This document shows, piece by piece, positions 7,525 through 55,010 of a stretch of 64,000 nucleotides of DNA. The notes beneath the pieces are model-generated. The model ran no database searches. It worked only from the letters and a program-made list of their open reading frames with translations, and was not told where the DNA came from. The stretch spans positions 340,731 through 404,730 of the forward strand of contig JAAXWR010000001.1 in NCBI GenBank assembly GCA_013334825.1, in the 5' to 3' direction. How positions within the stretch are numbered: the stretch's first letter is position 1; every line of letters starts with the position of its first letter. Source of the stretch: Candidatus Yonathbacteria bacterium (GTDB lineage Bacteria; Patescibacteriota; Minisyncoccia; Phycocordibacterales; JACNGX01). Made by a program: the position numbers and the translations under genes.

Positions 7525-7563
7525 TAATGAGAAAAATATTATACCCTATTCTTTTAAGGAGAA

Positions 7564-7680
7564 GGCCTTTGACCTCCGCATTGTCCCGATGAATTGTGGT
7601 GGACCCTACCGGATTTGAATCCCGAGCTTCGTGGAAGCCCGAGGACAGGCCTTTGACCTCCGCATTGTCCCGATGAATTG
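7564..7680 (-). repeat. Tandem duplicated 3'-half fragments of tRNA-Ala(TGC)
   Basis: Reading the minus strand after the tRNA CCA end: CAATTCATCGGGAC + AATGCGGAGGTCA + a 34-nt insert + TTCAAATCCGGTAGGGTCCACCA. Then CAATTCATCGGGAC+AATGCGGAGGTCAAAGGCC occurs again. This is a direct read of the sequence. Confidence 0.85.
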
Positions 7681-7756
7681 TGGTGGACCCTACCGGATTT
7701 GAACCGGTGACCTCCGCATTGCAAATGCGGCGCTCTACCAACTAAGCTAAGGGCCC
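7681..7756 (-). tRNA. tRNA-Ala(TGC)
   Basis: GGGCCCTTAGCTTAGTTGGTAGAGCGCCGCATTTGCAATGCGGAGGTCACCGGTTCAAATCCGGTAGGGTCCACCA. G3:U70 pair, anticodon loop TTTGCAA, CCA encoded. Confidence 0.95.
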
Positions 7757-26666: not shown

Positions 26667-26742
26667 GGGCGGCTAGCTCAGATGGTTAGAGCGCACGCTT
26701 CACACGCGTGAGGTCACAGGTTCGATTCCTGTGCCGCCCACC
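26667..26742 (+). tRNA. tRNA-Val(CAC)
   Basis: GGGCGGCTAGCTCAGATGGTTAGAGCGCACGCTTCACACGCGTGAGGTCACAGGTTCGATTCCTGTGCCGCCCACC. Anticodon loop TTCACAC. Confidence 0.93.
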
Positions 26743-26975
26743 TGCCTTCGCTAGAGTCTCAATATTGCATGACAAAAATATTTAGAAGCTTCGGCAAGGT
26801 AAGACAGGCGGCAAGCAAAGCAACTGCTTGCTTTGCGACAGGAATCGAACCGAGCACCACTTTTGATATTGCAAAAGTGGTGCTCGACATCCAGCGATAC
26901 TTATAAAAATGCGAGTGCTCGGAGTATTTTTGTTAGTAATCGCGGGACGATTCCTGTGCCGCCCACCTGCCTTCG
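26743..26975 (+). mobile_element. Mini-element at the tRNA-Val 3' end, bounded by a 27-bp direct repeat of the tRNA 3' end
   Basis: DR gattcctgtgccgcccacctgccttcg occurs at 26724-26750 and 26949-26975. The interior holds an 11-bp-stem hairpin (gcaagcaaagc/gcttgctttgc), an inverted tRNA T-arm fragment (ggaatcgaacc), a 14-bp inverted repeat cgagcaccactttt/aaaagtggtgctcg, and CGGGAC immediately before DR2. Confidence 0.6.
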
Positions 26976-27106
26976 GTTCGCTGAAGCGAACCTACGGCGT
27001 GGCAAGCCCGCTTTTGTTTGTACATACAATTGCGAGTATAATGAAAATAATTATTGTACGCGAAAGCGACCTTCGGTTCGCTGAAGCGAACCTACAGTGT
27101 GACAAA

Positions 27107-32120: not shown

Positions 32121-32187
32121 TTCGACTTCGTTCGGCTTCAAGAAATGAAGCCTCACTCCGCTCATGGTCTTCGACCTTTTTTACCAG

Positions 32188-32502
32188 ATGAATAGGGTTT
32201 CTCTTGAAAAGCCGAATGGAGTCGAATGCCCTGAGCCTGTCGAAGGGCTTTACTATGTTTACTTACTTCTTTGCTGTGACGAAAGCTTATACTGTGGGTC
32301 AACAAAAAATCTCAAGAACCGCACAAAAGAACATAATTCTGGCGAAGGAGCGGCGTGGACTAAAAGACGCCGCCCGGTAAAATTAATATATTACGAAACG
32401 TATGATTCACTTATTTCAGCTCGTCGTCGTGAAAGACAAATAAAAGGATGGACAATTCAAAAAAAATTTAATCTAATAAACGGTATTTGGCAGAAATTAT
32501 AA
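32188..32502 (+). CDS. GIY-YIG nuclease family protein (YhbQ/UPF0213-like), second copy
   Basis: GLYYVYLLLCCDESLYCGSTKNLKNRTKEHNSGEGAAWTKRRRPVKLIYYETYDSLISARRRERQIKGW. The start may be 32164 or 32188. It lies 45-70 nt downstream of tRNA-Pro(GGG). Confidence 0.75.
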   Translation: MNRVSLEKPNGVECPEPVEGLYYVYLLLCCDESLYCGSTKNLKNRTKEHNSGEGAAWTKRRRPVKLIYYETYDSLISARRRERQIKGWTIQKKFNLINGIWQKL

Positions 32503-54651: not shown

Positions 54652-54722
54652 TGCCAGATCGTCTAATGGTAGGACAGCGGGTTTTGGTCCCGTCAATCTA
54701 GGTTCGAGTCCTAGTCTGGCAA
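54652..54722 (+). tRNA. tRNA-Gln(TTG)
   Basis: TGCCAGATCGTCTAATGGTAGGACAGCGGGTTTTGGTCCCGTCAATCTAGGTTCGAGTCCTAGTCTGGCAA. U1:A72, anticodon loop TTTTGGT, CCA not encoded. Confidence 0.88.
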
Positions 54723-55010
54723 CAAATGTAAAACGGCCTTATGGGCCGTTTTACATTTGTTGCCAGAAGCAGGGCGACTGCTCGCCCTGCGACTAGGACT
54801 CGAACGGCTCGGCGATGTCGGACCGAGCACCACTTACAAAAAATTCCTAAAAAGTGTTAGAGATATTTTCCAAATAATAAAGCCTCTCTATGATGTTATC
54901 TGAAAGTGGTGCTCGAGACGACCGCGAGCCGCGTCCAGGAGTACTTTGCGTATTGCGAATACTTGGAGCAATACGCTTAGTAACTCCGGGACGAGTCCTA
55001 GTCTGGCAAC
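54723..55010 (+). mobile_element. Mini-element at the tRNA-Gln 3' end bounded by an 18-bp direct repeat of the tRNA 3' end. It is homologous to the tRNA-Val element.
   Basis: DR gagtcctagtctggcaac occurs at 54705-54722 and 54993-55010. The interior holds a perfect 16-bp-stem hairpin (caaatgtaaaacggcc/ggccgttttacatttg), the hairpin cagggcgactgctcgccctg, an inverted tRNA-Gln T-arm fragment (gactaggactcgaac), an inverted repeat ggaccgagcaccactt...aagtggtgctcgag, and CGGGAC immediately before DR2. Confidence 0.6.

Follow-up and report, generated by a model that had tools for sequence, protein, structure and literature searches.

The 64,000-nucleotide (nt) stretch of Candidatus Yonathbacteria DNA analyzed here (contig JAAXWR010000001.1, positions 340,731 to 404,730; referred to below as the window), from a metagenome-assembled genome (MAG) belonging to the Paceibacteria in the candidate phyla radiation (CPR), carries two small structured units, one directly downstream of tRNA-Gln(ttg) and one downstream of tRNA-Val(cac). 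These belong to a widespread family of Paceibacteria elements located at tRNA genes. The feature is real and is unmatched in Rfam and in viral contigs, and no earlier description of such elements was found in the literature searched. The interpretation preferred here, to which about an even chance is given, is that the units are non-autonomous tRNA-homing mini-elements with a core of structured RNA or single-stranded DNA.

On the tRNA strand a unit consists, in order, of the tRNA 3′ end from the T-loop onward (B1); often a trailer hairpin, whose stem, where present, runs on into B1; a segment complementary to the acceptor 3′ strand (anti-acceptor); a hairpin (H2) with a loop that is usually CTGC; a segment complementary to the T-arm (anti-T), terminating in TCGAA(C); two further hairpins (H3 and H4); and a second copy of the tRNA 3′ end (B2). 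H2 of units elsewhere keeps the CTGC loop, with stems that covary. The base of H3, GGCGGAGC...CGAGCCGCG, includes tandem G-A pairs. H4 is the most conserved module, and reads GTCCAG-NN-GTACTT, a variable stem, and TTAGTAAC-NN-CGGGAC; the variable stem covaries, and a bulged A and an A-G mismatch are conserved. Units are about 145-290 bp long and carry no genes: no open reading frame (ORF) lies within any of them, including the 200-290 bp interiors of the window pair, which bears out an initial annotation of the window in which no integrase was seen in either element.

That annotation also proposed that the two elements represent a family. Searches used at first a pattern made up of the right-hand hairpin and the junction (strict H4), and later a covariance model built from 26 cores. 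Among GTDB species representatives, the strict pattern was found at a single locus (L003; loci outside the window are given L numbers), where a tRNA-Arg is followed by three tandem units. A pattern scan of metagenomes gave 59 loci, in almost all of which the motif lies 145-320 nt behind a same-strand tRNA. The covariance model gave 112 matches, corresponding to 85 distinct units in 443 kb of related DNA, so that a family does exist; 64 of these units have a same-strand tRNA no more than 900 nt upstream, 16 have too little upstream DNA, and 5 are without a tRNA. Their host tRNAs comprise 28 tRNA species for 15 amino acids.

In a test independent of the core, 69 of 104 tRNAs at these loci were followed, within 350 nt, by a stretch of 10 nt or more that is antisense to the 3′ half of the tRNA itself; in the upstream control the match never exceeded 10 nt and was mostly 4-9. 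Antisense-bearing tRNAs include some with units of other core types, and the junction motifs are varied (CGGGAC in the commonest type, but also GTGACC, GAC(A/C)CC, GGAGA, and others). Many tRNAs have no unit. Tandem arrays, some of mixed core types, are common, and are found in L003, L006, L028, L039, and L056.

The tRNA-derived parts of a unit always match the adjoining tRNA, as had been noted for the window pair. Over 23 distinct elements, at many tRNA types, the anti-T segment pairs with positions 53-65 of the adjoining tRNA at 280 of 299 positions. In three of four informative cases the anti-acceptor complements the tRNA 3′ strand; in the fourth, at a tRNA-Ala, it retains a G opposite U70. 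The antisense segments pair better with B1 than with B2 (28 cases vs. 9), and B2 itself decays, with a median identity to B1 of 83% (at least 90% in 15 of 41 cases, below 60% in 7). These anti-tRNA segments lie embedded between conserved parts of the scaffold, which can be nearly identical at different tRNAs. On one 121-kb contig, the units at tRNA-Gly(tcc) and tRNA-Arg(gcg) are 97% identical through H2, H3, and H4, and differ solely in the anti-acceptor, anti-T segment, trailer, and B2; the cores at tRNA-Thr(ggt) and tRNA-Arg(gcg) are 100% identical across contigs, against a background identity of 63% for cores from different contigs and different tRNAs.

The predicted fold (RNAalifold) is a tight three-way junction. 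Its first stem, P1, is formed by anti-T paired with B2; P1 is joined to H3 via GAA, H3 to H4 via one C, and H4 stands directly against P1. Covariation, counted on a model-fitted alignment of 89 distinct rows, is strong: bases pair in 94.6% of cells, with double changes in 27 of 29 pairs (397 cells), and none of 500 shuffles was as high, while slid controls pair at 27-44%. The tRNA strand gives the more stable fold in 31 of 33 cores, and has 41 G-U pairs to 11 on the other strand, which argues that the folded molecule is the tRNA-sense strand, as either RNA or single-stranded DNA. By a census of apical loops (C(GAA)G 14 times, G(CUUG)C 13 times, GCGAAGC 22 times), RNA and single-stranded DNA folds are indistinguishable.

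The boundaries of the units, and their presence or absence at corresponding sites, bear on how they came to be there. In 21 of 31 distinct cases, taken from several core types, tRNA position 56/57 is where the direct repeat begins. In L063 and L068 the native trailer, TCTG(C/T)ACACAA, lies after the distal copy; B1 and its hairpin therefore arrived with the element, just as happens with classical elements that integrate at tRNAs. Both observations agree with the attL/attR-like layout, with a regenerated tRNA 3′ end, recognized in the initial annotation. Units have also been gained and lost. In a syntenic Cys-Leu(taa)-Lys(ctt) tRNA cluster, the Cys-Leu gap is 16 or 29 nt, and empty, in two genomes, and 241 nt in another, where it holds a full unit with a perfect 18-nt B2; the Leu-Lys gap measures 86 nt when empty, 197 nt where it holds one unit, and 395 nt where it holds two.

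At the tRNA-Gln site the core type has turned over, with type A in the window and L068 and another type in L063. An empty tRNA-Gln site was looked for through homologues of the neighboring HD-domain hydrolase, but the relatives found (L063 and L068) also carry elements. In L063 (3776-3945; hydrolase protein 59% identical), tRNA-Gln is followed by an element of the same layout (hairpin, anti-acceptor, anti-T, a core of about 115 nt, and a diverged B2), whose core cannot be aligned by eye with that of the window. L068 (1-460; Logan SRR11449212_168370) has an intact tRNA-Gln beside a pseudo-tRNA-Gln fragment, made up of approximately positions 38-53, a hairpin insert of 22 nt, and a 3′ end that has diverged; the fragment bears the ortholog of the window Gln element. 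This ortholog keeps the GAGCACCACTT apex and the trailer hairpin (H1) of the window unit, the latter with a compensatory change: its anti-acceptor and B'/B'' (GTTGTCAGA / TCTGACAAC) have changed in step, independently of the nearby intact tRNA-Gln. This suggests that selection, or conversion, has favored pairing inside the element.

If the units are homing mini-elements, entry into the tRNA gene would take place inside the T-loop, with strand exchange between C56 and R57. The element would supply its own tRNA 3′ end (B1), completing a working tRNA, and the gene would stay functional; the displaced original 3′ end (B2), with its native trailer, would remain downstream and decay over time. On the tRNA strand, whether RNA or single-stranded DNA, the anti-tRNA segments may pair with the tRNA copy that the element carries, and the resulting duplex would then serve as a target mimic beside the conserved junction, giving homing specificity. 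Repeated entry at the regenerated tRNA would lead to tandem arrays. The acting enzyme would be encoded outside the element, which would thus be mobilized in trans.

The nearest analogies are the T-loop class of integrative elements, for the outer layout, and the CTX attP and integron attC sites, for the inner logic. Integrase-driven tRNA islands and prophages (P4-like), and their integrase-less cis-mobilizable derivatives, likewise insert in a tRNA gene and supply a new 3′ end; they share with the units a 17-28 nt T-loop-to-3′-end repeat, tandem accretion, and decay of the displaced copy. The units, however, are 100-fold smaller, have no integrase nearby, and form one scaffold family at 28 or more tRNA species; they also contain, internally, a segment complementary to the tRNA 3′ half, together with a three-way junction that covaries, neither of which the att sites of double-strand-acting integrases require.

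The similarities to folded single-strand attachment sites, namely integron attC and the CTX-phage attP(+) on which XerCD acts, are of another kind: structure conserved over sequence, a strand-specific fold, and conserved bulged or mismatched bases. In CTX, a spacer lies between inverted and direct copies of the target, and these fold so as to mimic the chromosomal site. With both attC and CTX the target is regenerated and arrays form, as with the units, and the recombinase acts in trans. The target of the units, on the other hand, is the tRNA T-arm and 3′ end, not dif or attI, and GTTRRRY/RYYYAAC core sites are absent; the palindrome ends of the units are GTTCGA...TCGAAC, the opposite arrangement to attC R''/R' sites. 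In Xer-exploiting integrative elements of the CTX type (IMEX), host XerCD acts at dif on a folded single strand with inverted and direct target-like sites. In the units, inverted and direct tRNA copies flank a structured, strand-biased spacer, and the target is not dif. No described family was found to which the units could be assigned.

Several points weigh against tRNA-homing mini-elements. None of the units is linked to a recombinase, an HUH nuclease, or a reverse transcriptase. A recombinase encoded elsewhere, as the initial annotation had envisaged, did not come to light: 492 kb contain one tyrosine-recombinase box, which is XerD-like and 7 kb from the nearest unit (a scarcity that in itself fits non-autonomous units), and no IntI-like gene was seen there. 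Neither an excised form nor a closely related pair of empty and filled alleles was seen, and the cases of gain and loss come from fairly distant genomes. Some insertions are old and vertically inherited: the window, L011, and L023 have a tRNA-Val unit in common, in which H2 and H4 agree and H3 has been replaced, and five contigs share a tRNA-Tyr unit whose B2 is derived in the same way. Recent hops alone therefore do not make up the family. Identical scaffolds at different tRNAs, and mosaics in which H4 is identical and H3 different, could result from gene conversion among resident copies. The covariation counts rest on an alignment fitted to the model itself. At many loci a hairpin resembling an intrinsic terminator lies between the tRNA and the core, which argues against high expression of an RNA form. 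Finally, classical att-site logic leaves the internal anti-tRNA segments unaccounted for, and the rewriting of these segments for a new tRNA has no explanation.

The strongest alternative, though a somewhat unlikely one, is that the units are not mobile but resident: structured RNAs that serve the host, linked to and co-transcribed with the tRNA. They might be 3′ trailer or spacer RNAs that pair with the T-arm and acceptor 3′ strand of their own tRNA and so control its folding, processing, or release, or tRNA-like small RNAs; concerted evolution would then reflect gene conversion, and changes in number, unequal crossing-over. The initial annotation had offered small RNA genes as its own alternative, and part of the evidence is in their favor. 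The strong covariation and the tRNA-strand bias fit a functional RNA. The Val element sits within a tRNA-Val/tRNA-Pro unit, with no terminator ahead of tRNA-Pro, and the L051 units are also between tRNAs, so that these should be transcribed. Where B2 has decayed, including in the old tRNA-Tyr orthologs, anti-T is still complementary to the working tRNA. H2 occupies the very place at which a tRNA has its D and anticodon arms branching off, so that the antisense segments (anti-B) and B2 would form a tRNA-like top half. The mosaic identity of H4 and H3 fits gene conversion as well.

This placement of H2 recalls tRNA-like RNAs (the tmRNA domain, Y-RNA-like mimics, viral tRNA-like structures): with an intact B2, units can form an acceptor/T-stem stack, made of anti-acceptor, H2, anti-T, and B2, with a side arm. 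In the units, however, a large junction stands in for the T-loop, B2 has often lost its acceptor part, and identity follows the adjoining tRNA. There is also no match to an Rfam family: in Rfam 15, which covers self-cleaving ribozymes, introns, tmRNA, T-box, and Y-RNA-like RNAs among others, only tRNA models score above gathering thresholds, with nothing credible at E values up to 10 at either window locus. Other observations are difficult to reconcile with a resident RNA of any kind. Several unrelated-looking core types occur at the same tRNA in relatives (tRNA-Gln), tandem arrays are of mixed type, distal copies decay, sites are empty in relatives, and many tRNAs have no unit at all. Terminator-like hairpins often precede the core, pairing with the 3′ half of the tRNA would compete with its folding, and the L068 element persists on a pseudo-tRNA fragment.

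It is conceivable, but unlikely, that the units are a new type of guided mobile element, in which a scaffold of constant fold bears segments that are copied from the target tRNA and can be rewritten and, as RNA or as folded single-stranded DNA, directs a host or helper enzyme to strand exchange in the T-loop of the matching tRNA gene. Group II intron exon-binding sites (EBS), IS110 bridge RNA, and TnpB omega RNA are likewise built of a conserved scaffold and of short segments that can be exchanged and that complement the insertion target. Unlike these, the units have no intron, transposase, or nuclease gene, and an architecture like theirs, a three-way junction with a mimic of the tRNA T-stem as its closing stem, is found in none of them. 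Were this reading true, the units would amount to a programmable homing system, retargetable to almost any tRNA and equipped with a mechanism for writing guides; tailored segments that act as guides would point to a guided recombination or processing activity not yet known.

A further proposal, that the units are non-autonomous relatives of the insertion sequences (ISs) IS110 and IS1111, with the core as a bridge-RNA-like guide and the DEDD recombinase encoded elsewhere in the genome, is very unlikely. It is suggested by an IS110-family transposase (PF01548 + PF02371) within a unit at L009, and by the match of core segments to both target strands, which is reminiscent of guide loops (PMC11208160). 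The L009 IS, however, has its own subterminal inverted repeats and CGA at both junctions, and has merely inserted into the unit. The units do not have those IS ends, and 459 kb contain no other IS110 homologue. IS110 insertion duplicates only a 2-3 nt core, vs. 17-28 nt here; the antisense appears to be one continuous complement of 12-20 nt rather than two short loop guides; and there is no Rfam match.

The L009 IS (Ga0268280_1025190, 1-1857) is a complete IS1111-type insertion sequence inside a unit, between GGATTCGA and CGAACGGCGG. Its insertion point is between GGATTCGA and CGAACGG, with CGA repeated at both junctions. It encodes a DEDD transposase of 346 amino acids, has subterminal inverted repeats ATAGAACCCTG / CAGGGTTCTAT of 11-12 bp, and has a long 3′ non-coding end that contains GGATTCGA, a possible target guide. 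IS1111-type elements target repetitive elements, a habit with which this insertion fits (PMC11208160). REP/REPIN sequences and miniature palindromic repeats resemble the units in being small, non-coding, extragenic, hairpin-forming, and multi-copy, in their long vertical persistence, and in acting as landing sites for the IS110 family (L009). The units differ from them in being strictly tRNA-anchored, in having tRNA-specific, target-derived segments within a constant scaffold, and in a target duplication whose length varies (17-28 nt).

Least likely, and highly improbable, is that the units are inert scars of integrase-driven prophages or islands at tRNA genes, later deleted so as to leave attL and attR close together. 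A T-loop-to-3′-end repeat of 17-19 nt is typical of P4-like integrase islands, which counts for this idea, as does the decay of the distal copy. It does not account for the same structured core of 110-150 nt, with compensatory changes, at 28 tRNA species, or for internal segments tailored to each tRNA; integrase remnants are absent, the boundaries recur with precision, and pattern scans of viral contigs gave no matches.

A number of other candidates were rejected. A minus-strand gene, for a convergent tRNA-like RNA sharing a terminator with the tRNA, does not agree with the strand on which the cores fold better or with the distribution of G-U pairs (both given above). An intron in the T-loop is inconsistent with the intact tRNA preceding every unit and with the often degenerate B2; for group I and group II introns the interior is too small, and the junction bases (C before, C at the end) fit neither set of rules. 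Copying of the anti-acceptor from the tRNA 5′ strand is contradicted by the three informative cases in which it complements the 3′ strand. In a TnpB/omega-RNA-like arrangement with B2 as the 3′ guide, the regenerated tRNA would, by reasoning, be self-targeted. IS200/IS605-type ends are not compatible with a left hairpin that varies with each tRNA, and hammerhead or other three-way-junction ribozymes are a poor fit to the joining strands (GAA, C, none) and have no Rfam matches. In a MITE (miniature inverted-repeat transposable element), the flanking inverted segments would not be copies of the local tRNA, as they are here, and no parent IS with the same ends was found; the duplicated length varies (17-28 nt), so it is not a fixed target-site duplication.

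If the units are indeed homing mini-elements, most tRNA genes in a large uncultured group of bacteria with small genomes would bear a previously unnoticed class of element, in which three features not known together would be combined: a tRNA 3′ end regenerated as in large integrative elements, a core whose fold is conserved, and built-in segments matched to each target tRNA. Such elements could account for much of the non-coding DNA, and many of the assembly breaks, near CPR tRNA genes, and would offer a test case for how a tiny element without genes gains and changes target specificity.

The two window units are laid out in Table 1; tRNAs were called with ARAGORN and Rfam, and repeats with a direct and inverted repeat finder. 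The repeats, hairpins, and junctions described at both tRNAs in the initial annotation were all recovered by the repeat finder, including CGGGAC immediately before the second tRNA copy at both. The direct repeats are present as described but one base longer, at 19 nt (Gln) and 28 nt (Val) rather than 18 and 27. Independent Logan assemblies, from another run, are 100% identical across both loci; the repeats are therefore not an assembly artifact. By the covariance model the window holds only these two units, with matches at 54791-55005 (Gln, 88.8 bits) and 26836-26961 (Val, 81 bits), and their fold z-scores against dinucleotide shuffles are -15.0 and -10.3, respectively. The two interiors, described as conserved, do belong to the same family, but they are about 56% identical over core columns and are not near-copies. 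Across some 55 kb of the window, the genes with Pfam annotation have housekeeping roles, and no integrase is among them. Promoter and terminator scans of the window were uninformative.

In the Gln unit, H2 lies between the anti-acceptor and anti-T segments, at the 65/66 boundary of the tRNA complement. Anti-T covers the T-loop, the T-stem 3′ strand, and two acceptor bases (15 nt, 54702-54716 vs. 54791-54805, 100% complementary), and B2 pairs with it, closing the three-way junction. The basal part of H3 is homologous to H3 of L045; its apex is common to L068 only. The inverted T-arm copy of the Val unit is 14 nt (26719-26732 vs. 26838-26851, 100% complementary). About 63 nt of the Val left spacer are missing from the orthologous elements of L011 and L023, which carry the usual GGCGGAGC...CGAGCCGCG H3 where the window element has a reduced hairpin.

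The inverted repeat GAGCACCACTT, taken in the initial annotation as a mark of the family, proved to be lineage-specific (window and L068); the close relatives L011 and L023 differ in H3 at tRNA-Val. It occurs 4 times in the window, as two inverted pairs, against 0.70 expected, a count that none of 100 shuffles reached. The GAGCACCACTT/AAGTGGTGCTC hairpin forms the H3 apex in both window elements (54824-54915 and 26851-26886) and in L068 (257-350), in this lineage only, and in Gln and L068 it encloses an AT-rich loop of 68-75 nt. This pattern suggests either that the two elements of one genome have undergone exchange, or a secondary insertion.

Table 1. Parts of the tRNA-Gln and tRNA-Val units, in window coordinates.
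Feature	Position	Strand	Sequence or basis
tRNA-Gln(ttg), host gene	54652-54723	+	ARAGORN + Rfam, 61.7 bits
Gln B1, last 19 nt of tRNA-Gln, T-loop to 3′ end	54705-54723	+	direct repeat
Gln H1, perfect 24-bp hairpin taking in the tRNA-Gln 3′ end	54715-54738 / 54744-54767	+	100% complementary
Gln H1 arms: left, acceptor 3′ strand + trailer; right, terminating in anti-acceptor	54759-54767 (anti-acceptor)		GTTGCCAGA
Gln H2, scaffold hairpin	54769-54790	+	GCAGGGCGA-CTGC-TCGCCCTGC; inverted repeat
Gln anti-T	54791-54805	+	GACTAGGACTCGAAC; complement of tRNA positions 53-67
Gln H3	54805-54933	+	basal stem GGCTCGGCG...CGCGAGCCGCG
Gln H3 apex, lineage-specific	54824-54835 / 54904-54915	+	CGAGCACCACTT / AAGTGGTGCTCG; encloses 68-nt AT-rich loop
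Gln H4	54933-54992	+	GTCCAG-GAGTACTT-(variable stem, loop GCGAATACTTGGAGC)-TTAGTAACTC-CGGGAC; ends at junction
Gln B2, second T-loop to 3′ end copy, 19 nt	54992-55010	+	direct repeat, 100% identical
tRNA-Val(cac), host gene	26667-26742	+	ARAGORN + Rfam
Val B1, including 8 nt of trailer	26723-26750	+	direct repeat
Val left spacer, then anti-acceptor	26751-26812	+	GGCGGC (26807-26812)
Val H2	26815-26836	+	GCAAAGCAA-CTGC-TTGCTTTGC; inverted repeat; identical in ortholog L011
Val anti-T	26838-26851	+	ACAGGAATCGAACC; complement of tRNA-Val T-arm
Val H3, reduced to lineage-specific hairpin	26851-26886	+	CGAGCACCACTTTTG / CAAAAGTGGTGCTCG; inverted repeat
Val H4	26890-26948	+	closing with CGGGAC (26943-26948)
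Val B2, T-loop to 3′ end copy + 8 nt of trailer, 28 nt	26948-26975	+	direct repeat

Some smaller repeats were seen in or near the units. Between the Val element and tRNA-Pro there is a 36-nt direct repeat, CCTTCGGTTCGCTGAAGCGAACCTAC..GTG.CAA (26970-27005 and 27070-27105, 92% identical), each copy of which contains a hairpin, GGTTCGCT/AGCGAACC. A 20-nt palindrome, CCTGCCTGCCGG(N)AGGCAGG, stands at differing places within three units (L003 1679-1698, L030 673-692, and L057 1917-1936), in L030 interrupting anti-T; this may be a tiny palindromic repeat in its own right.

A partial duplication of another kind follows tRNA-Ala(tgc) in the window (7560-7756, minus strand). After the trailer, CAATTCATCGGGAC, the anticodon-stem 3′ strand is copied along with the variable loop (AATGCGGAGGTCA); the place of the T-stem 5′ strand is taken by a 34-nt insert that contains a small hairpin, and a 23-nt copy running from the T-loop to the CCA end comes next. 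The trailer and fragment then recur, and an independent assembly breaks off at exactly this point. Lastly, tRNA-Pro(ggg) is free of an element in the window, although the same tRNA species carries one in L023; a gene for a 112-amino-acid GIY-YIG domain protein (about 32164-32502, plus strand) starts about 45 nt after it.

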